A stretch of 64,000 nt of DNA from a phage, in the NCBI GenBank assembly GCA_026209155.1, contig GCA_026209155.1_3056.1; one strand, given 5' to 3'. This document shows, in pieces, positions 5,932 to 63,350 of the stretch. The translations under genes and the position numbers were made by a program. The stretch's first letter is position 1. Every line of letters starts with the position of its first letter. The notes beneath the pieces are model-generated. The model searched no databases, was not told the origin of the DNA, and saw only the letters and a program-made list of their open reading frames with translations.

Positions 5932-6480
5932 ACCCAAGAAAACATCTACTGATCGTTGATACCACTGCAAATCCAAATAGCCATTACGCACATTAAACTG
6001 ATAGAACATATGACAAGGCGGTAATGCCATTTGCTTGAGTTCAGCTGGATTCCATGCTGAAACAACTTGACGTCTATCATTTGGCAGTTTTTTAATACGA
6101 TCAATAACTTCTACAATTTGGTCTACACCGCCAAAATCACGCCATTGTTTTCCATAAATTGGACCAAGTTCACCGCTATGGTATCCTAAATCTTTTGCTT
6201 GATTTTCGTAATTTTCATCCCAGACTGTTTTGCCTTGAATTAATGAATCATGCTGAATTAATCGTAAATCATTTACGTTAGTACTTCCTGACAAAAACCA
6301 TATTAGCTCAGCAATACAAGCTTTCCAGGCGAGCTTCTTAGTCGTTACTGCAGGAAAACCTTTAGTTAAATCCCAGCGTAATTTAGTACCGAACAAAGCA
6401 ATTGTTCCTGTGCCTGTTCGGTCATCGGTTTCATAGCCATTTTCAAAAATGTCTTTAATTAAATCTTGGTATTGTTTCAT
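5932..6480 (-). CDS. td: Thymidylate synthase exon 1 (N-terminal 183 aa, ends DVFLG)
   Basis: TS motifs (RTGTGT, active-site region PPCH); in-frame TAA is the first intron codon. Confidence 0.9.
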
Positions 6481-6525
6481 TTAGTACCTTATATAAATTA
6501 TAATACATTTTATGAAGCTAAATAA

Positions 6526-6885
6526 TCAATACGGTTTAGCATCAAATTTTCTTTCAATTTCAGGCGTGAAATACAATTCTTTACCGCGTTTGGAAAAGCG
6601 ACCAATAATATGATAATTATTCTCATCAAACGTAATATTGCCAATATCCATAGCTTTCAACCAAATATCGATATTTCTATCCAGTTTTATATCAAAATTC
6701 CAATACGGAGAACTATTACCGAAAATACTGCAAGCGGATTCAGTGAAACAACTACTATAAATCTTGTCTTTAGGAACTACTAATTGATAGACGCCTTTAA
6801 TAAACTGAGGACCCTGCCATTTTGGTTGTTTCGCGTCTTTTTCTAATAGAATAGGGTAATAATTAAAATTCATATTTTCCGCCAC
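6526..6885 (-). CDS. Hypothetical protein, 119 aa, between frd and td
   Basis: ORF in the frd-td interval; I remember frd and td as directly overlapping in T4, so likely an insertion. Confidence 0.5.
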   Translation of the reverse strand: MAENMNFNYYPILLEKDAKQPKWQGPQFIKGVYQLVVPKDKIYSSCFTESACSIFGNSSPYWNFDIKLDRNIDIWLKAMDIGNITFDENNYHIIGRFSKRGKELYFTPEIERKFDAKPY

Positions 6886-6893
6886 GTGTTATT

Positions 6894-7720
<827 letters not shown>

Positions 7721-8374: not shown

Positions 8375-8668
8375 TTATTTTTGAATTTTATCGAGCCACT
8401 TACCAAGCTTAATCATTTCTTTAGTAGCCTTTTCCATACTTCTGAACTTAACCAATAGAGGATAGGTATCGACACCCATAACTAAACTGGTTACAAGACT
8501 GTGTTCACCCACAAGCCATAACGAATACGTTTGAATATCGAGCCCGTAATTTCTGTCTTTGTGGACCCGTACACCCATCACTTCAAATTTCTCACTAGCT
8601 TTTTCTACCGCATCCAGGAAATCATCTTTAGTCATATTAGGCCTTAAAAGTTTTTCGCAAAAGTTCAA
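8375..8668 (-). CDS. Hypothetical protein (frd.x-like)
   Basis: 97-aa ORF abutting previous ORF. Confidence 0.5.
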   Translation of the reverse strand: MNFCEKLLRPNMTKDDFLDAVEKASEKFEVMGVRVHKDRNYGLDIQTYSLWLVGEHSLVTSLVMGVDTYPLLVKFRSMEKATKEMIKLGKWLDKIQK

Positions 8669-9017
8669 TGATTTCGTCTACATTGTTTTCATCTACAATG
8701 CAGTGAATTTTTGTTACGCCAGAAACCTTGTCTTTGACTTCATCTTTTTCAGAAGTCGGTTCTTTATACTCACGAAAACAATGAAATTCGTCTTCGCAAA
8801 TTTCTAAAAGTCTATCTTTGAGGTAAAAATGCTTTCCATTTGCGCATTCAATGTGTTTTACTGCTTTATATCCGTTAGCGACGGAAACTTCTTTAACTTC
8901 AAACCATCCGCCATTATCTCGAATGGCTTTAACTATTGATGAATTAGAACGTGGGCTATAATTAATAAATGTATCAATAAGTCTTGGAACAAGTTCATAC
9001 TTTTTACCAGTATACAT
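8637..9017 (-). CDS. Hypothetical protein (frd.x-like)
   Basis: 126-aa ORF. Confidence 0.5.
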   Translation of the reverse strand: MYTGKKYELVPRLIDTFINYSPRSNSSIVKAIRDNGGWFEVKEVSVANGYKAVKHIECANGKHFYLKDRLLEICEDEFHCFREYKEPTSEKDEVKDKVSGVTKIHCIVDENNVDEIIELLRKTFKA

Positions 9018-9061
9018 TACGGTTTCCTCATTTTGATAGGGGCTTGATAGCCCCTTGATAA

Positions 9062-9292
9062 TTATTGTTCAATCAGTCCCATGTAAAATTCTGCGTCTTC
9101 AGAATCCATGCCATCACAATATTCATTAGCCATAAAGCGGGTGAGGTCTTCAAGAGGACCTTCAATGACAATAGAAAAATTGCAATAATTGGGATCATCG
9201 TGAATACTTGTGATGCTAAGTTCAGGATAACGATTACGAATAATTTCTTCGATATATTTAAAATCAACGATGTCAATATCAACTTTAGCCAT
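9062..9292 (-). CDS. Hypothetical small acidic protein, first gene after an early promoter
   Basis: 76-aa ORF directly downstream of promoter element at about 9325-9370. Confidence 0.5.
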
Positions 9293-9324
9293 ATTATTTT
9301 CCTCTTTAATTATCAGCAGTATTG

Positions 9325-9370
9325 CCGATAGTTGTATAGTACCATAGAATGCTTTGGTTGTAAACAGTTT
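9325..9370 (-). promoter_or_regulatory. T4-type early promoter (-35 GTTTAC, 17-nt spacer, -10 TATAGT-like) with conserved leader
   Basis: Minus-strand GTTTACAACCAAAGCATTCTATGGTACTATACAACTATCGG...; same block recurs at 26560, 30420, 56510. Confidence 0.5.
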
Positions 9371-9383
9371 TGTGAAAAATTTT

Positions 9384-9415
9384 TAAAATAAAAAAAGGGG
9401 ACCCTAGAGGTCCCC
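9384..9415 (-). terminator. Rho-independent terminator downstream of gene 32
   Basis: Minus-strand hairpin GGGGACC-ucuag-GGUCCCC followed by UUUUUUUAUUUU. Confidence 0.7.
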
Positions 9416-9437
9416 AATTAATTAGTAATATAATCTA

Positions 9438-10343
9438 TTAAAGGTCATTCAAAAGGTCATCCAGGTCCGTGTCATCAGCACTAGATGAACTGCCAGAGCT
9501 TGAGCTCATAAAATCATCTTCAGTTTTTGTATTGAAGTCATCAACATTGAATGCATCCAAATCATCAGCAACTTTATCGGCTTTCTTAGCAGCCGTTGCC
9601 GCAGCACCACCCATAATAGCAGTTCCCATAACTTGACTGAACTTAGTGCTCAGTTCTTCAAACGATTTGAACTTATCTTTAGAAGTCATTTCAGAAAGGT
9701 CAACCATTTGTTCGAACAGTTCTTTCTGGAAAGATTTATCGTCAATGTTTGGAATCGCAGATTGATTCAGGAATTTAGATTCATCGTAGTTACTAAATCC
9801 AGAAACCTGTTTAACTTTCAGTACAAAGTTAGCACCTTCCCACGGACAAGTTACATCAACCGGAGTTTCACCCATTTCAACATCAACTGCAATCATCGCG
9901 TTGATTTTATCCCAGATTTTCTTACCGAAACGGTATTTAAATACTTTACCTTCGTTTTCTGGAGCAGCTGGGTCTTTTACTACAAGAATGTTAGCCCAGT
10001 AAGAAGTTTTACGTTTAACAAGACTGTACTCTTTATTGTCAGTGTTGTACAGATCATTTTTACTGATGTATTGACATACTGGGCAAGAATCATAATCACC
10101 ATGGGTAGATGAACATGTTTCAATATACCATTTACCATTTTTCTTGAAACCGTGATTTACAAGAATTGCGAATGGTGCTTGTTCATCATTTTTAGACGGA
10201 AGAAAACGAATTACTGCTTGACCGTTACCCGCATTATCGAGTTTCAGTTTCCACTCGCCTTTATCTTCAGAAGAAAAACCTTTATTGCCATTCAGTTTAG
10301 CCATTTGTGCAGCAAGTTCAGCAGTAGATTTACGTTTAAACAT
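9438..10343 (-). CDS. 32: Single-stranded DNA-binding protein gp32
   Basis: 301 aa, same length as T4 gp32; Zn-binding region [12 protein letters not shown]; acidic C-terminal tail. Confidence 0.95.
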
Positions 10344-10415
10344 TTTATTTCCTTTTTAATTTAATTTAATTTAATTAACAGTTGGTGCTATGACACTTTA
10401 CCTCATAGCTGGCAT
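10344..10415 (-). promoter_or_regulatory. Gene 32 translational operator: UUAAA-repeat leader plus upstream pseudoknot-like element
   Basis: Minus-strand ...GCCAGCUAUGAGGUAAAGUGUCAUAGCACCAACUGUUAAUUAAAUUAAAUUAAAUUAAAAAGGAAAUAAAAUG; matches remembered gp32 autoregulatory site. Confidence 0.65.
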
Positions 10416-11035
10416 AATTCGCAATACTCTGGGTCTTCGAGAGGTATCCAACCTGAGTTGAAATACTTTACCATCGATTTAGCAGTTGTATCAGTTATAT
10501 TTATATTACCTTTAACTCTTCGCCATCCAGGAGTTTTACCGTACAGATTAGAGGATAATAATAACACATAATTCTCGTAAGCAATATGAGATAATTTCCA
10601 AGACTCTATATTAGCTCGTGATGTTTTCCAAGGTCTAAAATCGTCACGGTTCATATAATTAGCCAATCTCATATGCTCTCTAACTTCCGGGTCTTTGGCT
10701 GGATGAGTTTCACCACTCACACCAAATCCACCACCAGCATATACCAGATTAAAATAGTCTGGATTATCTCTGGCATTTACTTCAAGTTGGTATTTTCGTT
10801 CTGCTTCAATAACATCCAAGTCATCATCAATTTGAATTATTTTAACGCTCGGTTTTTGAAGCATTAGCGCATTCAAAAATCTTTTTTGTTTACATGAGCT
10901 CCAGTATTCCTTTCCGGAAGAGTCATATATTATTCCGTTCTCAAATGAGCAATTTAATTTACTACCGATATAGTAGTATGGCGGAGTCTTATTTTTGACA
11001 CGGTCTTCAAATGTAAACCAATATACTATATTCAT
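10403..11035 (-). CDS. Free-standing GIY-YIG homing endonuclease, segG-like (between genes 32 and 59)
   Basis: N-terminal VYWFTFEDRVKNKTPPYYYIGSK (GIY..YIG spacing); locus equals T4 segG position; paralog of ORF 62077..62964. Confidence 0.65.
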   Translation of the reverse strand: MNIVYWFTFEDRVKNKTPPYYYIGSKLNCSFENGIIYDSSGKEYWSSCKQKRFLNALMLQKPSVKIIQIDDDLDVIEAERKYQLEVNARDNPDYFNLVYAGGGFGVSGETHPAKDPEVREHMRLANYMNRDDFRPWKTSRANIESWKLSHIAYENYVLLLSSNLYGKTPGWRRVKGNINITDTTAKSMVKYFNSGWIPLEDPEYCELCQL

Positions 11036-31346: not shown

Positions 31347-32285
31347 TTATTTAAATTGTTCAGTAACGTCTTCAACTACTTCGTATTGACAGGTACGCAT
31401 TTTAGCATCGTTGTAATCAATCGGAATTGATACTACATCGCGAGGATGTACTTTAACTTTTACAACTCGGCTGGTTGAACTGCCAAAGTGACGAATATAA
31501 GATTTAGAACACACATGCAGACCACGAGAACAAGTTTGTGTATCATCGTCATTCACACGAGTACGTGGCATTTTAACTACTTTACCAGGACTGTTATCAA
31601 AGGTATTTGAGTGACAGTCAAAGTAATTGCTGCGAACTACTTTCCAAGCATAGAAGTAGCCGTCTTCTGTAATTTCAATATCGTTTGCTACCAAGAAATC
31701 AAAGAGTCGAGATACTGCTTTTTGGCTTGGGTTTTCCAGCAGATTTTCCAAGAACGGAAAATAAAATTCAAAGTTTTCACCTTTTTCCATCGAATCAAGA
31801 ATACGATCAACTAAACCAGACCGCAATTCAATATTTTGATAGAACAGGCTTCCACCTTCAATTCGAACATCACCGGAAATATATTTTTCAACAGCGCGAC
31901 GAACATTAATTTTTTGTGCCGCTTCTTCCAATTTATCTGCAACAAGCAGATTAAGAATTTCCTGGAAGTTTGAATGAGTATTAGGAGTTGCGTTATAAGT
32001 TACGCCATCAACAGTAATTGAAATGAATTTTTTAGATGCATTCCAAATAATGTCAGATTTAGCAACTGGAGCAATAGCTACATCACTCTTAACTTCAACT
32101 GTAATGTCACCGCTAATGGTAACTTTGGAGCGCTCAACTTCTTCAGCATTTTTCAAAACACGACGGATTGTGTCAACCGATACACCTTGCCAATCAGCCA
32201 ATTCCTGCTGGGTATAATTACCACTTGAATACAGTTTGACAATTTCAGCTTGTTCGTTTTTGGTCAGGCATTTAATATTGTACAT
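31347..32285 (-). CDS. rIIB: rIIB protein
   Basis: 312 aa as in T4 rIIB; N-terminus MYNIKCLTKNEQAEIVKLYSSGNYTQQELADWQGVS. Confidence 0.93.
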   Translation of the reverse strand: MYNIKCLTKNEQAEIVKLYSSGNYTQQELADWQGVSVDTIRRVLKNAEEVERSKVTISGDITVEVKSDVAIAPVAKSDIIWNASKKFISITVDGVTYNATPNTHSNFQEILNLLVADKLEEAAQKINVRRAVEKYISGDVRIEGGSLFYQNIELRSGLVDRILDSMEKGENFEFYFPFLENLLENPSQKAVSRLFDFLVANDIEITEDGYFYAWKVVRSNYFDCHSNTFDNSPGKVVKMPRTRVNDDDTQTCSRGLHVCSKSYIRHFGSSTSRVVKVKVHPRDVVSIPIDYNDAKMRTCQYEVVEDVTEQFK

Positions 32286-32296
32286 AATTTTCCTTA

Positions 32297-34474
32297 TTAG
32301 GCCGCAAGGGCCTTCATAGTTTTAGCGATTTGGGAAACTTCATCATCACTTAAAGAGTTGCGATAACCGATGAAGTCGGAAACAATACGGAATTTCTTGG
32401 TAAACTCAGCAACCATTTTATCACTGTTTTTTGAAGCATTATTTGATAATACATCAAAAAGATTAGTTACTGTCCAGATGTCATGACCGATGGTATCTTT
32501 TCCACCGTTGAAATATACACCCTGTAATGAACTAACCATATTAGCGAGTCGTGTATATTCTTCAGAAACTTCATCTACACTGAAGTACTTCATCATAAAA
32601 TCTAGTTCAGGATACTTAATAATTTTATCAATATATCGTTTAGCTGAACTTGAATAACCTACATACTTATCATAATCTACATCATCAAAAGCATCTACAT
32701 ATAAATCACGCAAAGTTTCAAAAATACATTGGCACTGACCAAGTTCTTTTACCTTTTTCTGCAAAAGCGGACGAATAACATAAAATTCATTAATGCCAAT
32801 AAGATTAGCCATACGAATCAAAATATTCGTAGATGGATGACAAAGCGATGTAGTACCATCCATAGAGAAAATATCAGAATGATGCATGTATGCTACATAA
32901 CCAGTAATTTCATCTGCTTCTGACGTAAGTGTAAACAATTCCTCTTTTTCCCAGCGCCCGTCTTTAATTTCAAACTTAAATGCGGTGGCAGCTTTAGGAC
33001 GAGGAGCTGTACTTTTTACTGCCTTTGGAATATAACTTTTAACTAAAGCTTCAATTTCTGACAAATAATGAATGTTAACTTCATCACTTTCAAACATTGC
33101 CATAATATCAGGAAGCAAATCAATCTGCGATTCTACTTCCGGATTAATAAACAGAAGACGCTCATTGTGATGAATATTCAAAGTGTTATTAAATTCACTA
33201 TCATCTAATGCACGTGCTAATCCACGGACAATATTAACACGATTTTTAATATTATCAATAACGATATTAATTTTTGTTGTGTTAATACCAAACAGACGAT
33301 AACTTGATGCAACGGCTGAAGTTTCATGACTTTGCTTAATGCGTTTTAGTCGAGGGTCAAGATTTACTTCATACACAACCCCTGCATTGCATAACTTACT
33401 GTCAGGTTCAAACATGCTTTGCATCTTCTTATATGACAGATTTTTAGTCGTGAATTTGACCGAATTACTAATCATATAATCTCGAGCAGAATATCCCATC
33501 TTCATCAATTCACGGTATGTATGACGAGGAGATGTAGATTCTTTAAATCGTTTTACATCTTCATTAAATGCCTTCTCACTGAGCTCTTTAACACGCTCAA
33601 TAATATTTTTACGAGTACGATCATCTAGTGAAAGAGCCTCACGCGATGGAGCAATATCAAGTGAACCCATTGGAAACTTAATGTAATTCACTTCATTACG
33701 AATGCTTAACCAGTTACGGTCTCTAATAACACCGTCGATAGGATAAACAATACCACCATAGATAGCATATAATCCACCACGATCTGGCCAGTATCTTTCT
33801 GGATTTACGCCGTAATAATCATCAAAATCAGGAAAATAATCAATTTCGCGGTCAAGACCATTAATGATAGCCAAATCTTTGAATGGTCGCATGATATAAG
33901 AAACTTCATAAGCAAAGTTTCTAAAGTCTTTTTCTTCAACTGGAACTACGATTTCAATACCAGTTTTATCGTCTGGACCCATTTCTTTTACGAATGTAGG
34001 TTTAATCTGCGGACCGTCACCATCCATGTAAGCTACATAACCACGAATTTCGCCTTTATGATATGAAGTGATACTAAACGTATCAGTATAACTAAACGGA
34101 GATTTAGAACCTAAACCAAATCCACCAATGAAATCATTAGATTCAGCCTTAGATGAACTGAAGTATGAATTATACAACCCAGGAGAATTATCATCACCCT
34201 GAATATCAAAATCGCTCATACCCGGACCAAAATCTCGACAAACAAATCGCGGATCTAATCGTCCTGGAACTTGAATGATAAATTTTTCAGGATTTCCATT
34301 AAGAGCATGGGCATCAATCATGTTGGTAATCAATTCACGGACTACTGCGCGAATCTTGTTTGTATACAAATCAGATGATAGAATTTTAAATACTTTAGGA
34401 GATGCTGTGATGCTAAATGCTTTTGATTTAGAACCATTACCAAGAATTGTTTCTTTTTCAGTGGTGATAATCAT
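32297..34474 (-). CDS. rIIA: rIIA protein
   Basis: 725 aa as in T4 rIIA; directly upstream of rIIB. Confidence 0.93.
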
Positions 34475-34711: not shown

Positions 34712-34745
34712 TAATTATACCACATCCTTGTGGTAAAGTAAACTA
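34712..34745 (-). promoter_or_regulatory. T4-type early promoter (-35 GTTTAC, 17 nt, -10 GTATAAT) overlapping the gene 39 stop
   Basis: Minus-strand GTTTACTTTACCACAAGGATGTGGTATAAT. Confidence 0.55.
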
Positions 34746-36563
34746 TTGGCTCATCCATTCTTTACGAAGGTCAGCATTATCTCCCATGAGCATTTCAAAA
34801 AGCTCTTTCCAGTTCTCAGGAAGTTTAACAACATCATATACTGGGTTTTGAATCATCTCACGATATTCAGATTTTTCCAAAGAGCCAAGTCCTTTAATAT
34901 AACGGATGCTATGTTTAGGTAGAGCATCTTTGGCACTCTCATATTCAGCGACTGTATAAAACCATTCTTGTTTTTTACCGACCTGAGCGATGATTACAGG
35001 AGTTTTGACAAAGCGAATTCTTCCTTGTTCAAACAATTCTGGCCAATTACTAAAAAATCCGAGCAGAGAAGGATAAATGCTTCCTAGACCATCATGGTCA
35101 GCATCAGTCATAATAGCAATATTATGATAATTCAAGTTTTCAGCCTTTTCACCAAGAACTAATCCAGTGATTGCACAAATATCGAACAGTTCTTTGTTTT
35201 TAAGCATATCAGCATATGACATGCCCCAACTGTTAAGAACTTTACCACGCAATGGATAACCACCATGAAGTTCTTTATCACGAACATCAATAAGATATCC
35301 GATAGCAGAATCACCCTCAGTCAAGAAAAGAGTAGTATCAGCATCTTTACCGCAAAGATTCGCTTTGATATGTTTATGAACCTTAGCTTTAGAAGCCTTT
35401 TTAGCTGCTTTAGTTTCTGCTGCTTTTTCTGCCGCCAATTTACGAGCCAAAGCAGCTTCAATAATCGGCATTAGAATTGCTTCATTATTTAGAATAGCGC
35501 GTGAAATCTTTTTAGCATCAAGCTGAATATGACTACGAATTTCGCCAAATGGAGAAGTCAAACGCTCTTTAGTTTGAGAATCAAATCGCATGTTTTTCAT
35601 ATCACGAACAAACATAACGATAGTCAAACATTCTTTAACACGTGCTTTAGTTACATCAATTTTGAACTTACGTTTGATTTGTGGAATAAGGTCTTCACAA
35701 ATATCATCCATAACGCAGTCAATGTGATGGCCACCATTCTTAGTATGAATGTTATTGACGTATGTTAATTGACGAAAACCATCCGGTGAACGACCAACCG
35801 CAATAGAACAATTTTCTTGTTCTTGAACAATAGCATGTTCATCATATTGGCGTGCATATTTCTTAAAATTACCCTGAACCTTTTTACCATTAAAGGTAAA
35901 TTGAATATCAGGATAAACTACTGCAAGTGTCTGGAGACGATCTAGCGTAATGTCAAGATAAACTTGAGATAGTTCATTAGTTTCAAATGACATAAAATCA
36001 GGAATGAAAGTAACACGAGTTCCTTTCCATTTTCCAGGAATAGTTTCCCATGATTTATTTTCCATGCCATTTGAACAACGAACTACAATATTATTTTGAC
36101 CATCGCCAGTTTCACCGACAAACATCACAGAAAAAATGTTAGTTAAACTAGAGCCAACACCGTTCATACCGCCAGTGACGCGTTCTTTATCATCACCAAA
36201 GTTACCACCTGCTTTTGGAATAGTCCAGGCAGCAACAGGACCAGGAATTTCTTCACCAGTAGGTGTTTTAACCATCGCTTGTGGAATACCACGACCGTTA
36301 TCTTCAACTGTTACTTGATTGTTTTTGATAGTAACATTAATTTTATTTGCGAATTTAAACTTAGTACGAATACCTTCATCTACTGAGTTATCGATAATTT
36401 CATCAATAAGCTTAACAAGACCAGGTACATACTGAACACTTTCCCATTTACCAAACAGAAAGCGCTCATGCATTTCATTAGCGGAAGAGCCAATGTACAT
36501 GCCGCTACGCTTTTTGATATGTTCAATATCGCTCAGAATTTTAATTTCATTCTTAATCATCAC
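34743..36563 (-). CDS. 39: DNA topoisomerase II large subunit gp39, uninterrupted (GyrB-like ATPase plus Toprim region that is gene 60 in T4)
   Basis: 606-aa continuous ORF; C-terminal IAIMTDADHDGLGSIYPSLLGFFSNWPELFEQGRIRF segment is contiguous. Confidence 0.9.
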   Translation of the reverse strand: MMIKNEIKILSDIEHIKKRSGMYIGSSANEMHERFLFGKWESVQYVPGLVKLIDEIIDNSVDEGIRTKFKFANKINVTIKNNQVTVEDNGRGIPQAMVKTPTGEEIPGPVAAWTIPKAGGNFGDDKERVTGGMNGVGSSLTNIFSVMFVGETGDGQNNIVVRCSNGMENKSWETIPGKWKGTRVTFIPDFMSFETNELSQVYLDITLDRLQTLAVVYPDIQFTFNGKKVQGNFKKYARQYDEHAIVQEQENCSIAVGRSPDGFRQLTYVNNIHTKNGGHHIDCVMDDICEDLIPQIKRKFKIDVTKARVKECLTIVMFVRDMKNMRFDSQTKERLTSPFGEIRSHIQLDAKKISRAILNNEAILMPIIEAALARKLAAEKAAETKAAKKASKAKVHKHIKANLCGKDADTTLFLTEGDSAIGYLIDVRDKELHGGYPLRGKVLNSWGMSYADMLKNKELFDICAITGLVLGEKAENLNYHNIAIMTDADHDGLGSIYPSLLGFFSNWPELFEQGRIRFVKTPVIIAQVGKKQEWFYTVAEYESAKDALPKHSIRYIKGLGSLEKSEYREMIQNPVYDVVKLPENWKELFEMLMGDNADLRKEWMSQ

Positions 36564-47310: not shown

Positions 47311-47318
47311 TATTTATA
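47311..47318 (-). promoter_or_regulatory. Late promoter TATAAATA upstream of soc
   Basis: Plus-strand TATTTATA is TATAAATA on the minus strand, about 30 nt upstream of soc ATG. Confidence 0.6.
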
Positions 47319-47364
47319 ATAATAATTCTCGCGGCTTTTAAGTCGTCGTTAAAAAAACGAGCTA

Positions 47365-47883
47365 TTAATAACCTCGGTCTTGACGAGCGAAGTTTTCAGC
47401 ATTTTTCAGATAATAAAGTTTAAAGATTTCTTCAGCCGTAAGACCGAGACCTTGGAACATGTTCAGAACGAAATGAAGAATATCAATCATTTCGAATTTA
47501 ATTTCCAACTGGTCTTGCGGAGACAAATCAGTAATTAGAGTTTCACGACGTTCACCATGTTGAGCTTTCCAAGGCTTCCATACAGCAGATGCATCTTTTT
47601 CGCCATTGCTCATACCGCCAAGAGAAGTTAGAAGTTCACGGAATTCATCGTCAATATAATCTTTCTGATTACGCAGCCAATCAACAACTTCACCTGCAGT
47701 AGCCAAATCATCAGGATGACGGTTATATTCAGGTTTATCTTTAGCTAAACGAACTTGCAGAGATTTCTGCATATCAAGCATAACCTGCAGTGGGTCTTTT
47801 TCATCACCGAGAATATCCCAGTATTCATTTTGAGCTTTATCAGCGCCTTCGATCAGTTGTGAACATTCATTAAAGTATGCCAT
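47365..47883 (-). CDS. 56: dCTPase/dUTPase gp56 (MazG-like), from internal Met MAYFNE; track ORF 47365..47976
   Basis: 172 aa from internal Met; MotA-type promoter lies inside the track N-terminal extension. Confidence 0.85.
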   Translation of the reverse strand: MAYFNECSQLIEGADKAQNEYWDILGDEKDPLQVMLDMQKSLQVRLAKDKPEYNRHPDDLATAGEVVDWLRNQKDYIDDEFRELLTSLGGMSNGEKDASAVWKPWKAQHGERRETLITDLSPQDQLEIKFEMIDILHFVLNMFQGLGLTAEEIFKLYYLKNAENFARQDRGY

Positions 47884-47917
47884 TATTTTTCCTTTCAATT
47901 CATGGGTTAGTAGATTA

Positions 47918-47942
47918 ATTATACAATAAATATATAAAGCAA
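47918..47942 (-). promoter_or_regulatory. MotA-dependent middle promoter for gene 56
   Basis: Minus-strand TTGCTTTA, 11-nt spacer, TATAAT, about 30 nt upstream of gp56 ATG. Confidence 0.6.
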
Positions 47943-47954
47943 TAAGGAGGACAT

Positions 47955-52634: not shown

Positions 52635-53790
52635 TTAACTGTTCGAGGTCAGTTTCTAAATCAGCAGCTGATTTACTTTTACTTTCTGGAGATTTAAATT
52701 TTTCAACCTTTGAGTTAATCAATTCATCAACTTCAGCTTCAACAATTTCATTGCTATCAATAGCACCTAACTGATAAGCACGTTTAATAGCATCTCGGAA
52801 TGGTTGATGCTTAAATAAAGGACCCCAGAATGTAGTGCAGTTGGTATCTTTTGCACGCCAAGATTTTTCTTCGCGAATCATCTCACCGGTTTCTTCATCA
52901 AGAAATTCACGAGCATACCAACCGTTCTTAGGTTTTACCACGAATCCTAATTCTAGAGCCATATCTAACAATCCAGAATAAGGATCGATACCACCATCAA
53001 ATTTAACATCAATAAAGAATTTACTTTTTTCTTTAACGGTACGAGATTTTTCTACATTTAGAACAAATTGATACCCCTGAAGATCAGAACCATCTTTAAT
53101 CTGGCGTTTACCGATAATGAATACGGTATCAGCCGAATACATTACGCCTGTACCACCTGTCATCACGGTTTTACTAAACATTTCAATTGTTTCAATTGTA
53201 TGGTTAACCGCAACACATGGAATATTTTTAATGCTAAAATAAGGAGTAACAATACGGAATAATGACTTCAGTGATTTAGCACGAGTCATATCTGCCACAG
53301 ATTTTTCATTCAAGGCATCTTCCGTTTCTTTCTTAGAAGCCATATTACCAATTGAGTCGATGAATACAATAACTTTTTCACCACGCTCAATAGCTTCAAG
53401 CTGATTCACCATATCAATTTTCAGCTGTTCAACTGACTGGATTGGTGTATGAATTACACGTTCCGGATCAACTCCCATGGATCGCAAATAAGCTGGAGTA
53501 ATACCAAATTCGCTATCATAGAATAGACAAACCGCGTCAGGATATTTGTTCAAATACGCCGCAACCATAGTCAAAGACATATTTGATTTAAAGTGTTTAG
53601 AAGGCCCTGCGAAAATAGTTAAACCAGACTGCATTCCACCATCAATCGCACCAGAAATAGCGATATTGAGCATTGGGATTTTTGTACGGATTACATCCTT
53701 TTCATTAAAGAATTTAGATGTAGTCAGCTCAGCAGTCATTTTAGAAGTGGAAGCTTTAATCAAACGGGATTTTAAATCTGCAATAGACAT
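52609..53790 (-). CDS. uvsX: Recombinase UvsX (RecA-like)
   Basis: 393 aa; Walker A GPSKHFKS; RecA-fold. Confidence 0.92.
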   Translation of the reverse strand: MSIADLKSRLIKASTSKMTAELTTSKFFNEKDVIRTKIPMLNIAISGAIDGGMQSGLTIFAGPSKHFKSNMSLTMVAAYLNKYPDAVCLFYDSEFGITPAYLRSMGVDPERVIHTPIQSVEQLKIDMVNQLEAIERGEKVIVFIDSIGNMASKKETEDALNEKSVADMTRAKSLKSLFRIVTPYFSIKNIPCVAVNHTIETIEMFSKTVMTGGTGVMYSADTVFIIGKRQIKDGSDLQGYQFVLNVEKSRTVKEKSKFFIDVKFDGGIDPYSGLLDMALELGFVVKPKNGWYAREFLDEETGEMIREEKSWRAKDTNCTTFWGPLFKHQPFRDAIKRAYQLGAIDSNEIVEAEVDELINSKVEKFKSPESKSKSAADLETDLEQLSDMEEFNE

Positions 53791-53867
53791 TCATTTTTTC
53801 CATAGGCATCATTATATTTTCCTCACTGGTTAAAGATAGAGTAATTATAACACAATAAATTTAGGCA

Positions 53868-54716
53868 TTAATCAACTGCTATTGGATGAATAGCATTAAA
53901 CTTATGAAATGCTTCTGATTTTTCTTTACGAGAAATACACATGCGAAGAACCTTTAATGGCTCGTCTTCTTCACCCAACGATTTTCGTTTTTCAATATTA
54001 GAAGTTTTCCAACGAGCTTGCTCTGGAAACTCTCTATTGATTTGTTCAAGCGCTCTATTATGTTTAGAATTACTACGAATTGAACTGCACCCGCCGGGAG
54101 CGTGTGATTTTCCAGATACAACTAGATATTTGAACAAGGCCAAATGCGGATAACCTTGATTAATTAAATTGAGAAATGCGTACATATCTTCACATAAATC
54201 AATTTTTCCATACCCAATTTGTTCTGTCGTAAGTTTTCCGAGGTCATACCATGTATTCGTGAATCCATATGAGTTTTCACGATAATTACCCCAAGATGAA
54301 GTAATTTTAAAAATAGGTAGACGAGCATGGCCATGATAATACCCACAATCCATGGCATCCTCAACGTATTGAATTAATTCATAGAACTGTTCACGAGTTA
54401 ATTGATTAATTTTATCTACGCGCCGTTTATCGTCTCTCTTTCGTATTGAACTCATACGAATAGTAGTATCATCATCAATCATCCAGATTCGTTGACCTGC
54501 ATACATGTCAGTAATTGCTTTACGAGTACCGGCAATTCCGTTTACATCATCAGGAATAGTTATAATTTTAGCTCTAGACCCATAGGCATCATAATAAGCT
54601 TTTTCTTCGTGTTCACGCACTACAATATGTGGTTCATAATCAGTCGGAAACATATCAAGGGCAGAAACTGCCCCTACACGTTGATAGCTTGGAATTACGA
54701 ATTGAATCATTTCCAC
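53868..54716 (-). CDS. Putative DNA glycosyltransferase (DxD-type) at the beta-gt locus; likely beta-glucosyl-HMC alpha-glucosyltransferase
   Basis: 282 aa with IWMIDDDTTI DxD motif; does not resemble remembered T4 beta-glucosyltransferase; sits between uvsX and 42. Confidence 0.55.
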   Translation of the reverse strand: MEMIQFVIPSYQRVGAVSALDMFPTDYEPHIVVREHEEKAYYDAYGSRAKIITIPDDVNGIAGTRKAITDMYAGQRIWMIDDDTTIRMSSIRKRDDKRRVDKINQLTREQFYELIQYVEDAMDCGYYHGHARLPIFKITSSWGNYRENSYGFTNTWYDLGKLTTEQIGYGKIDLCEDMYAFLNLINQGYPHLALFKYLVVSGKSHAPGGCSSIRSNSKHNRALEQINREFPEQARWKTSNIEKRKSLGEEDEPLKVLRMCISRKEKSEAFHKFNAIHPIAVD

Positions 54717-55447
54717 TCACCGTTATAATCTTTTTTCACAATATGAGTTTCGCCAGTATTCCACCAATGATCAACCAAGTAAAAATGACGAGAATATACA
54801 TGAAGACTTCCAACATTCCATATAATAGAACCTGCTTTATACTGACGAGTTGAATCGCCTGCATTCAAATCAGATACTAATTTATCTAATACGTATTTTT
54901 GCCATGCATAATCATTACGGAATCCGAAGACCACGTCATTTGAGCGCATGCTTACTACTGCATTGACTTTCTTATCACGAATCAGGTACTGTACTGTATT
55001 AGTACACATGAAATCTGACATACCATCTTTATTGTAGTCAAATTGCATGGATGGACGAGTATAAATCATGATACCACGTCGAGAATCAGGATTTTGACCA
55101 AGTTCAGCTAAACACATATCATACTGAGCATAGTTATCTTCTGACCAGATAGCCCAACCGTAATTCGAGTTAATTTCACCTTTAGAAGATGCTACTTGTT
55201 GCCAAATCTTCGGTGTTTCACCCGGAATATCTTTAACGAACAAGCTCTTAGATTTATACCATTCAAGTTCACGCTGAATGTATTCATCATTAAGAGCGCC
55301 AAAAATAAACGGTTCATCTGCTACAAATGATGCGCCAATAATTTCAATAGTTTTAACACCAGTTTTATCAACTACGAAATCTTTTTCTTTTAATGCAAGC
55401 CCCAAATGAAGACGGATTTCTTCAACTGTCATAGAGTCACTAATCAT
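54707..55447 (-). CDS. 42: dCMP hydroxymethylase gp42
   Basis: 246 aa as in T4 gp42; TS-family fold. Confidence 0.92.
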   Translation of the reverse strand: MISDSMTVEEIRLHLGLALKEKDFVVDKTGVKTIEIIGASFVADEPFIFGALNDEYIQRELEWYKSKSLFVKDIPGETPKIWQQVASSKGEINSNYGWAIWSEDNYAQYDMCLAELGQNPDSRRGIMIYTRPSMQFDYNKDGMSDFMCTNTVQYLIRDKKVNAVVSMRSNDVVFGFRNDYAWQKYVLDKLVSDLNAGDSTRQYKAGSIIWNVGSLHVYSRHFYLVDHWWNTGETHIVKKDYNGEWK

Positions 55448-61393: not shown

Positions 61394-62080
61394 TTAAAAA
61401 TCGTGGGTAGAATCAGCTTCAAGAGCTACTACATAATTCGCATGTTCACCTTCAAATTTAGCAGCACCTTGTTTACCTTTTGCCCAGAGCAGAAGTTTAT
61501 AATTTCCTGGTTGCATTTTCATATTTGCCATATTGATAATGAAATTAAATGTATTTTCACCATCATAATCACCAAGAGTCAAAGAATATTTAACACGGGT
61601 TAAAGCAGAATCTTCTACTTTATTAAAACCGTTAATTACGATTTTACCTTCTTTTACCGTGATAGCAATTGTATCAATTTGCAGACCACGGGATACACGC
61701 AACAGTTGTTGAAGGTCTTCAGCTTTAATTTCAGTAACAACAGATGCTACCGGGAATGGAATTGGTTTATTAGGAGCAACTACTGTACTCGGATCGGCTG
61801 CTGGCCAAAAAATTGTTGAACGAGCATCAGCAATTTTAATATTTCCATCTTCTGACTGGGAAATTTCTGCATCATCATTAACTAGAGACAGAATACCGAG
61901 AAAACCGTTCAAATCGTAAATTGCTACATCAAAATCAATAACGTCAGAAATATTTGCTTCCGCATAAGTTGTACCATTAACTGCACGAGTCATAATAAAT
62001 TGACCAGATTTAAGCATAATACCGGAGTTAATAGTAGCGAAATTTTTCAAAATATTCAGTGTGTCTTTAGATAATTTCAT
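61394..62080 (-). CDS. 45: Sliding clamp gp45
   Basis: 228 aa as in T4 gp45; N-terminus [46 protein letters not shown]. Confidence 0.93.
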   Translation of the reverse strand: MKLSKDTLNILKNFATINSGIMLKSGQFIMTRAVNGTTYAEANISDVIDFDVAIYDLNGFLGILSLVNDDAEISQSEDGNIKIADARSTIFWPAADPSTVVAPNKPIPFPVASVVTEIKAEDLQQLLRVSRGLQIDTIAITVKEGKIVINGFNKVEDSALTRVKYSLTLGDYDGENTFNFIINMANMKMQPGNYKLLLWAKGKQGAAKFEGEHANYVVALEADSTHDF

Positions 62081-62964
62081 TTCAATTTCCTATTTACATA
62101 ATAGTTAGACCAGGACCGTACAGCACCCTGATAAGATTCGTCGTTAAACCCATTAGCTACTGCAATTTTACGAAATTTATTATAACTCGGTTTTCCGTAA
62201 GCATGCCATAAAGTTTTTAATTCATCTTCATGTTCAATCCAAGTTCCTCTAGCTTTAGATTTTCTAAATTTTGATTTGAATTCCGGTAAATTATTTCTAA
62301 CAGTTGCTTGAATTGAAGCTCTCTGTCTTCTTTCAGCATTATTCCATAACTCTTTTTGAGATTTAGAAATTTTTGATCTTACACTTTCTGAATTCATTAT
62401 ATCACTAAACTTTTTAGCATAACTACAATCAAGATATTTCAATTTCATCTTATTTGAAAGTTTAAGCTTTTTCTCATCGGTCCAGTGATTCTTCATTGAA
62501 TTAGATATTTTATATTTTACGCCAGAACTATGTTTGTAACCTTTACGAATACCAACATAATCGGGCGTAATTTCAGATTGCGAAAGCTTTACAATTTTTC
62601 CAGTTAAAACATTTTTATATGTTCCATATCCTTTAGCGCCAATTAAAGTATTTTCATCTGCGTATGCTTTATTAAAATATTTTATATTGCTTTTTGCTTT
62701 AACTTTTAATTGAAAAAATCTTTCCAATTTTCTTGGATCTAATATAGTTTCAGCTAAAATTTTGACGGTATATTTAGTGGTTTTAATAAGCTCAAAATAT
62801 TCATCACTATAACTCGATGACACGCTTCCAGTATAAATCTTTCCAGCTGAATCAATTATATTTGTTCCATCGAAAATTGCGTTAATTTTTGAACCTATAT
62901 AATAACACGGAAAAATATTTTTAGCTTCCCGCTCTGGAAAGCTAATAAGATATACTAAATTCAT
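62077..62964 (-). CDS. Free-standing GIY-YIG-like homing endonuclease candidate with NUMOD3-like repeats, inserted between rpbA and gene 45
   Basis: N-terminal [26 protein letters not shown], paralogous to the segG-like ORF; basic C-terminal half with SxxxKxKIS-like repeats. Confidence 0.6.
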
Positions 62965-63350
62965 TTATTAAACTCGGCCACAATTGTTTCCGCAACAATT
63001 TGAGCAGCAACAATCAGACGTTCATCTGCATTACCGCAATATTCATCTTCAAGGCGTTCACCACATGAAGTCATAATAAATTTAGCACCAGCGTTTAGGG
63101 ATTCTGTAGTATGTTTGCGCATTAGTTCAATCCATTTATTACTTACTTCACGATCGATAGCTTCATAATACGCATGACGAGCAGGTGCAGATTTAATTTT
63201 GTTCTGAATAACTTCCATTGCGTTATCAGAAAGAGACAAAACCCATGCTCGACGAATTTTATTTTGGTTTTGTGGATTTGATTCAGAACGCACGTGTTTT
63301 GGCTGAATATCTTTTACGTCAACAGTATAATTCACAGTAATTTTAGTCAT
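62961..63350 (-). CDS. rpbA: RNA polymerase-binding protein RpbA
   Basis: 129 aa as in T4 RpbA; position between 46 and 45. Confidence 0.75.

Follow-up and report, generated by a model that had tools for sequence, protein, structure and literature searches.

Among the mobile elements of bacteriophage T4, the closest described counterpart of the gene considered here is segG (gene 32.1). SegG is listed as an active, mobile endonuclease, and promoters for the essential gene downstream of it, gene 32, are documented as lying embedded within the segG open reading frame (ORF) (PMC2988022). The gene is free-standing, sits between genes 32 and 59 in the orientation of its neighbours with an essential replication gene directly downstream of it, and has gene 32 as its presumed target. 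A second point of reference is I-TevI, which is encoded within an intron of the T4 td gene. The locus between rpbA and gene 45, the latter encoding the sliding clamp, is absent from the loci listed in the 2010 review of T4 mobile elements (PMC2988022), and a literature search found no paper mentioning a homing endonuclease at rpbA/45. Some public records (PaulHMueller, RefSeq SHBML-50-1, F13076 and SholemSchwarzbard) already carry the label 'homing endonuclease'.

The gene at this locus is an uncharacterized member of the SegG branch at a site unoccupied in T4, and as such it is a known kind of element. Like segG, it is free-standing and lies just upstream of an essential replication gene in the orientation of its neighbours, its presumed target being gene 45. 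The reading favoured here, with a probability of roughly 0.8, is that of a free-standing, T4 Seg-type homing endonuclease gene from the SegG branch of GIY-YIG nucleases, which has replaced the 55-bp rpbA–45 spacer as a cassette; that estimate covers the expression, action, immunity and promoter exchange proposed below.

The rpbA–45 locus

The window is the whole stretch of DNA that was analysed, 64,000 nucleotides of phage DNA (GenBank assembly GCA_026209155.1, contig GCA_026209155.1_3056.1). It is a Tequatrovirus (T4-type) genome segment that spans from before gene 32 to gene 46, and its minus strand has the gene order 43, regA, 62, 44, 45, a 295-aa ORF, rpbA, 45.2 and 46. A sequence-only reading of the window had placed this ORF at 62077-62964, and both its coordinates, on the minus strand, and the N-terminal sequence quoted for it proved exact. 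The genes concerned are:

61394..62080, minus strand: gene 45 (sliding clamp), downstream flank and presumed target gene
62077..62964, minus strand: homing endonuclease gene, 295 aa plus stop; PHROG 655 at 7e-32; dN/dS 0.245
62961..63350, minus strand: rpbA, upstream flank
10403..11035, minus strand: segG orthologue between genes 32 and 59, paralogue of the endonuclease N-terminal domain; PHROG 7504 at 1e-133
62092..62966, no strand assigned: insert DNA, 875 bp in place of 51 bp of T4 (32614-32664), from BLASTN of the window against T4

The neighbours are identified by matches of the rpbA product to Pfam Phage_RpbA (6.6e-42) and of gp45 to its Pfam model (1.6e-51), with both gp45 domains recognized. 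The endonuclease ORF is fitted tightly between them, sharing the 4 bp ATGA with each: the stop of rpbA overlaps its ATG, and the start codon of gene 45 overlaps its TGA. The inserted DNA begins immediately after the rpbA codon AAT and ends about 11 nt upstream of the gene 45 ATG, and the final two codons of rpbA read NK* in the window versus NR* in the empty-site allele. That rpbA directly adjoins gene 45 in T4, as stated in the sequence-only reading, is borne out by NC_000866.4, where rpbA (32659-33048) and gene 45 (31917-32603) are 55 bp apart with no annotated gene between them.

Distribution of filled and empty sites

A megablast search with the 1957-bp region as query against 50,697 phage records returned 692 matching records, 25 of which have the insert. 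The flank-only matches among those listed (H26-H40) align over both flanks at approximately 98 % identity. When flank identity of at least 90 % is considered (approximately 504 records), 25 sites are filled and about 480 are empty, such that approximately 5 % of these phages are carriers. The junctions of the filled site are identical in all ten loci aligned (the window plus nine records), and the spacer is intact in all eight aligned empty loci as well as in T4. Up to the junction, the rpbA haplotypes of the aligned loci are common to filled and empty phages; the rpbA haplotype of the carrier G10400, for example, is that of the non-carriers L008, L011 and L012. The endonuclease gene is hence present or absent among phages that are otherwise approximately 98 % identical. 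A stand-alone ORF, in the orientation of its neighbours and showing presence or absence with a precise junction, is what distinguishes a Seg-type locus, and each of these traits is found here. The proposal made from the letters alone, i.e., a free-standing homing endonuclease at a locus not occupied in T4, is supported by the empty site in T4, the homology to SegG and the precise presence/absence pattern. It would have been undercut by a gene universal among T4 and its close relatives; in the junction comparison, T4 and most close relatives proved to be empty.

A copy of approximately 60 % identity occurs in four records, and the three inspected are Mosigvirus phages AV114, FL18 and AV111. These copies occupy exactly the same site, from the rpbA stop to the gene 45 start, and encode a protein of 296 aa with the same architecture and 60 % amino acid identity to the window ORF; the gene also shares the MotA-box/-10 motif discussed below, but it is separated from rpbA by a 5-nt gap rather than overlapping it. 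Of the Mosigvirus phages, AV114 has an intact copy, whereas those of FL18 (L005) and AV111 (L006) are frameshifted. Apparent frameshifts are also seen in ESh24 (L023 4684-5572) and EC121 (L025 4684-5568), so that the ORF is split or truncated by apparent 1-bp indels in 4 of the 13 other carrier loci inspected, namely nine Tequatrovirus records, the three Mosigvirus phages and PaulHMueller. These indels reflect either real decay or homopolymer sequencing error, the ESh24 record being flagged UNVERIFIED. Patchy presence, mixed haplotypes and broken copies constitute the usual homing-endonuclease cycle of invasion and decay.

It is conceivable that the gene is instead an ancestral component of the rpbA–45 region that most lineages have lost, its patchiness arising from ordinary recombination without any endonuclease-driven spread. 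Such a history would account for the use of the same site in two genera, and the divergence of the endonuclease (60 % aa identity) does fall between that of rpbA (45 %) and gp45 (79 %). Moreover, a dS of 0.065 among the Tequatrovirus copies indicates that they are no recent clone. However, every empty site examined (T4, the Tequatrovirus empties, Mosigvirus, L013/L014 and L016/L017/L022) consists of a short spacer with rpbA adjoining gene 45, and the Tequatrovirus empty spacer holds a mapped promoter, P45. No gene remnant was seen at the empty sites examined, and loss would need to have been precise every time. The GC content of the endonuclease gene, 29 % versus 35 % for the window, also speaks against such a history, as do the two recodings of gene 45 described below, and this ancestral history is considered quite unlikely.

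Carriers also differ in nearby accessory genes. Some have an HNH endonuclease gene that lies between 45.2 and 46 in the opposite orientation (6210-6926 in both N2 [L028] and L030), and some have another ORF, of 284 aa, between 46 and 46.1 (8623-9477 in N2, where it is annotated 'homing endonuclease', 7910-8764 in L025 and 7909-8763 in L029). The 45–47 replication/recombination cluster looks like a hotspot for accessory nuclease genes.

Protein family and catalytic domain

The 295-aa protein can be divided into four parts:

62650..62964, minus strand: N-terminal catalytic domain, aa 1-105, SegG-type GIY-YIG fold; invariant Y5, Y22-I23-G24, K26, Y44, S50, E81 and N98, with R12 at about 90 %
62530..62649, minus strand: linker module, aa 106-145, conserved beta-strands, including DYVGIRKG; conserved across 74 relatives
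62251..62529, minus strand: basic run of six short helices, aa 146-238, degenerate NUMOD3-like repeats, presumed DNA-binding on the basis of pI, the repeats and the NUMOD3 motifs of relatives
62080..62250, minus strand: C-terminal three-helix domain, aa 239-295, specific to this ORF and its Mosigvirus counterpart; presumed target determinant

The N-terminal domain places the protein in the SegG family. In BLASTP, the ORF and the window segG orthologue share 41 of 103 residues (40 %; E 1e-16), and a search of all phage records aligned residues 1-102 with T4 SegG at 39.8 % identity (E 3e-9). An HMM of the family, run over the whole window, matches solely the endonuclease ORF and the segG orthologue, and the ORF is matched by both PHROG 655 and PHROG 7504, each labelled 'homing endonuclease'. 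A full HMMER scan of 1.84 billion cluster representatives yielded 267 clusters of relatives, with E<=1e-10 for 146 of these. A scan of IMG/VR for protein relatives found none.

Paralogy between the N-terminal module and the ORF at 10403..11035 had been recognized in the sequence-only reading and holds; its GIY-YIG character, in contrast, has no counterpart in the standard profile and is a resemblance at the level of fold and family. In the Pfam/NCBIfam scan, neither GIY-YIG (PF01541) nor a related NCBIfam model matched the ORF, its Mosigvirus counterpart or the window segG orthologue at E<=1. PF01541 matched I-TevI (2e-18) and SegA (3e-9) as controls but missed T4 SegF, a proven member, and a profile match is therefore no necessary condition for GIY-YIG membership. 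None of 49 database relatives has a precomputed PF01541 match and none of 74 scanned relatives was matched; SegE_GIY-YIG gave a weak match in 4 of the 74. Likewise, a sequence-profile search of the PDB with the family alignment returned noise alone (E>0.04), Foldseek did not detect a GIY-YIG domain, and hhalign of the family with I-TevI left the catalytic domains unaligned. As a side observation, T4 SegF (L003 15606-16280) and the window segG, both established GIY-YIG enzymes, are missed by PF01541 and by all NCBIfam models; automated annotation therefore systematically under-calls the SegG branch.

Further evidence for the assignment comes from structure and from conserved residues. The structure prediction for the ORF is confident, with a specific fold match, and contains the three-stranded antiparallel sheet flanked by helices that typifies the GIY-YIG fold. 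Residues Y5, Y22, G24, K26, Y44, S50, E81 and N98 are invariant across the 74 relatives (K26 being 98-100 % conserved), and I23 is conserved in 97 %. The GIY tyrosine, the YIG Tyr-x-Gly, the catalytic glutamate and the structural asparagine thus occur in the appropriate order and at appropriate spacing, with 59 residues from Y22 to E81 and 17 from E81 to N98, compared to 58 and 15 in I-TevI (its sequence checked against the PDB). SegG has the same invariant residues.

The departure from I-TevI concerns the catalytic arginine. Across the 74 relatives there is no conserved Arg within residues 27-80, i.e., no counterpart of I-TevI R27, and the structure model predicts a beta excursion where I-TevI has the post-YIG helix that carries R27. 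SegG has the same missing canonical Arg. R12 is conserved in 88-90 % of relatives and lies on a family-specific short helix between GIY and YIG; R12 or K26 could take the catalytic-Arg role in space.

Linker, repeats and C-terminal domain

The protein is 85 aa longer than SegG. Its conserved beta linker and its run of six NUMOD3-like helices have no equivalent there, and its C-terminal domain is unrelated to that of SegG at the sequence level. The linker, with strands predicted at 113-139, has the consensus YATYKHxxTGKxVRLP...YVGVTKG in the 74 relatives. The description of a basic C-terminal half with NUMOD3-like repeats, like those of I-TevI, was correct for its charge and its helices: residues 146-238 have a pI of 10.3, with 24 K+R in 93 residues, and the helix S/T-x3-K/R-x-K-I/L-S-x3-K recurs three to four times. 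The link to NUMOD3 itself exists only at the family level. Pfam NUMOD3 (PF07460) does not match the ORF at E<=1, and the ORF retains the helical half of the motif alone; NUMOD3 matches occur in 57 of the 74 relatives and, in those displayed, lie opposite ORF residues approximately 150-240. In hhalign, this NUMOD3 stretch was the sole part of the family to align with I-TevI (residues 166-194), at 37 % probability. I-TevI further differs in having a single NUMOD3 versus six degenerate repeats, and the ORF is without a zinc finger and has no Pfam I-TevI_DNA-bd match.

Also related are NUMOD3-bearing, SegG-like endonucleases from phage metagenomes (e.g., P0010, P0015 and P0060), which are homologous over approximately residues 1-250, encompassing nuclease, linker and repeats. 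Their NUMOD3 motifs are canonical, whereas the repeats of the ORF are degenerate and its C-terminal three-helix domain is different. Among the metagenome relatives displayed, the C-terminus is a beta motif, a zinc-finger-like tail (CxxC...RWHxxNC) or a tail of the GRT type, and the consensus has the zinc-finger-like tail.

The endonuclease ORF is a conserved gene under purifying selection. Relative to the Mosigvirus copy, dN/dS is 0.245 overall, with minima of 0.16 for the nuclease domain and 0.15 for the C-terminal domain; the copies within Tequatrovirus differ by a dN of 0.006 and a dS of 0.065. Together with the database homologues and the confident structure prediction with its specific fold match, this purifying selection has already refuted the notion of a chance ORF or annotation artefact, for which the absence of Pfam matches was the sole argument and whose likelihood is negligible. 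A more substantive alternative sees the protein as a relic, inactive or domesticated, that binds DNA but has lost its nuclease activity and is kept only for the promoter and translational coupling needed by gene 45. The lack of an Arg at the canonical position, the failure of standard profiles to match, the tight overlaps with both neighbours and the presence of a candidate essential promoter inside the ORF would all suit a relic. Yet the catalytic domain is among the most constrained parts of the protein, Y5, Y22, G24, E81 and N98 do not vary among 74 relatives, and SegG has the same deviations but is listed as active and mobile (PMC2988022). Frameshifted copies in 4 of 13 loci mean, moreover, that the protein is dispensable and therefore not recruited. 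A relic is thus deemed very unlikely, and an active Seg-type endonuclease remains the preferred reading.

The start of gene 45 as predicted target and immunity site

In the loci aligned, the sequence immediately beyond the insert distinguishes carriers from non-carriers:

62063..62080, minus strand: gene 45 nt 1-18, silently changed at three positions (T at nt 7, A at nt 9, C at nt 18), from the alignment of carriers and non-carriers; predicted target/immunity site

The changes, C>T at nt 7, G>A at nt 9 and T>C at nt 18, are found in 10 of 10 carriers aligned and 0 of 8 non-carriers, while gene 45 polymorphisms past about nt 33 are shuffled between the two groups. When the whole phage collection was searched for the carrier-type 44-mer with <=2 mismatches, 28 records were obtained versus 25 carriers, a count that fits all 25. 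One Escherichia phage, LH2 (L031, OQ378934.1, 2440-2545), has an empty T4-type spacer, including P45, and yet has a carrier-type gene 45 start, ATGAAATTATCTAAAGACACG; LH2 either once had the endonuclease gene and lost it or has an empty site with natural resistance. The counts (28 vs 25) imply two further records like it.

In Tequatrovirus, Mosigvirus and the L013/L014 group, which matches S16/STML-198-type Salmonella phages, the non-carriers all start gene 45 with ATGAAACTGTCTAAAGATAC. Mosigvirus carriers start it with ATGAAACTTAGCCGTGAAACCGTA, i.e., the same 20-mer is recoded, but differently from Tequatrovirus carriers. The first 27 nt of gene 45 are heavily recoded in these Mosigvirus carriers, including K5R, D6E, I8V and A9N relative to non-carrier Mosigvirus. 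Differences between carriers and non-carriers in a neighbouring conserved gene, a pattern consistent with target-site immunity, are thus evident. Linkage within 18 nt of the insert could alone produce the Tequatrovirus pattern. Since the same 20-mer has been altered in two ways in two carrier lineages, the recoding is read as target-site immunity, which would put the recognition/cleavage site at the gene 45 start. Two different recodings of a conserved neighbouring target are the expected product of nuclease pressure, which argues against descent of the gene by ordinary inheritance and loss.

The carrier-type 20-mer, ATGAAATTATCTAAAGACAC, was also tried as a marker for carriers in IMG/VR; it was found at 12 loci, all in distant T4-like phages, and was uninformative on carriers. 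In these 12 environmental T4-like contigs (L032-L043), ATGAAATTATCTAAAGACAC is the gene 45 start, with gp45 approximately 32-37 % identical to that of the window. In nucleotide sequence, the first seven gp45 codons (MKLSKDT) are much more widely conserved than the remainder of gene 45.

Gene 45 is a target of RegA. RegA operators overlap the AUG or sit just 5' of it in A+U-rich sequence (PMC3014915). The recoded bases and the replaced upstream sequence (62063..62095, minus strand) fall within the gene 45 translation-initiation region, and clamp synthesis in carriers may be regulated somewhat differently.

Promoters and RNA signals

T4 has mapped middle promoters with starts at 32626 (P45) and 33257 (P45.2) (PMC2988021), and the P45 start falls within the spacer that the insert replaces. 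The corresponding elements of the window are:

62179..62203, minus strand: candidate MotA-dependent middle promoter within the ORF 3' end, TGCTTAC, 12 bp, TATAAT; consensus from PMC2988021
63566..63589, minus strand: counterpart of T4 P45.2, nearest upstream promoter able to drive 45.2–rpbA–endonuclease–45; T4 start 33257 maps to about 63559
62921..62945, minus strand: hairpin with a 10-bp stem and then an interrupted T run, lying 20 nt within the ORF; weak evidence

The TGCTTAC-12-TATAAT arrangement fits the MotA-box consensus and the spacing of 12 +/- 1 bp, and it is preserved in the Mosigvirus copies in the form TTGCTTTA-12-TATATT. By its position, the embedded MotA-box/-10 pair would start transcripts approximately 90 nt before gene 45, replacing the lost P45. 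A loose MotA-type motif occurs 31 times in the window versus 14.5 expected by chance, with 25 of the occurrences on the coding strand. The promoter motif shares its bases with conserved codons (W-x-A-Y/L-G-K-P-S-Y), and the conservation of the motif may thus be due to that of the protein.

The late-promoter motif, TATAAATA, was not found in or near the endonuclease ORF. Within the window segG, upstream of gene 32, this motif lies at 10498..10505 and a MotA-type TGCTTAC-N-TATTAT at 10558..10583 (minus strand), in agreement with the literature on gene 32 promoters embedded in segG (PMC2988022). The MotA-like heptamer TGCTTAC is identical in the window segG and the rpbA–45 endonuclease gene.

The nine Tequatrovirus carrier loci inspected all have the 5' stem-loop, which might attenuate transcription or translation. 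As a conserved regulatory structure, it was rejected, being missing from the Mosigvirus copies and having a fold z-score of only -2.0.

Other differences from T4 in the window

The window departs from T4 at several further accessory loci. It is without segF, 84 bp standing in place of approximately 700 bp of T4 (47318..47402, 47402..47923 and 47923..47944 region), and, in the same 47318-47944 region, without the approximately 900-bp T4 stretch that holds dam; gene 56, beside the missing segF, is 76 % identical to that of T4 versus approximately 95 % elsewhere. At 53778..54725, between uvsX and gene 42, 1.9 kb of T4 comprising segA and the beta-glucosyltransferase gene is replaced by a 282-aa ORF (53868..54716), presumably a different glucosyltransferase, as in T2/T6-type phages. 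Lastly, T4 has a 1.1-kb segment comprising gene 60.1, mobA and the gene 60/39 split that is missing from the window (34743..36563 and 35078..35143), and the topoisomerase large subunit is here a single ORF of 606 aa.

Proposed mode of spread and retention

Under the preferred reading, early promoters farther upstream and the middle promoter P45.2 would drive transcription of the endonuclease gene together with 45.2 and rpbA, and the AUGA overlap would couple its translation to that of rpbA. During mixed infection, the C-terminal part of the protein is predicted to bind the genome of a non-carrier phage at, or adjacent to, the gene 45 start (ATGAAACTGTCTAAAGATAC, conserved across genera), whereupon the tethered catalytic domain would make a double-strand break nearby. 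Recombination-dependent repair would then copy the endonuclease gene and short flanks from the carrier genome. The carrier itself would be spared, as it no longer has the spacer half of the site and its initial gene 45 codons are recoded. Having removed the middle promoter P45, the insert probably restores middle transcription of gene 45 through the MotA-box/-10 pair in the ORF 3' end, and this embedded promoter would also penalize loss of the element.

A more far-reaching version is put forward tentatively, as somewhat doubtful. In it, the SegG branch, including this ORF, may be a structurally distinct GIY-YIG subclass in which the Arg helix has been replaced and its role moved to R12 or K26; the ORF would specifically recognize the translation-initiation region of the clamp gene, carriers of two genera would escape self-cleavage by two recodings of the same 20 nt, and the element would have taken over the job of P45.

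Implications

The gene at rpbA/45 adds an eighth kind of Seg locus for T4-type phages, one that adjoins the essential clamp gene. The target prediction is unusually specific and testable: non-carriers of three genera do not differ over the ~20 nt at the start of gene 45, and natural variants can serve as controls, i.e., the allele with three substitutions, that of LH2, which is empty but recoded, and the heavily recoded allele of Mosigvirus. The entire SegG branch escapes the GIY-YIG model of Pfam, with the consequence that many such genes are filed as 'hypothetical protein'. Finally, an endonuclease cassette has at this locus removed a mapped promoter, P45, and apparently brings a substitute; it is a clean case of an arrangement that helps to explain the retention of such selfish genes.
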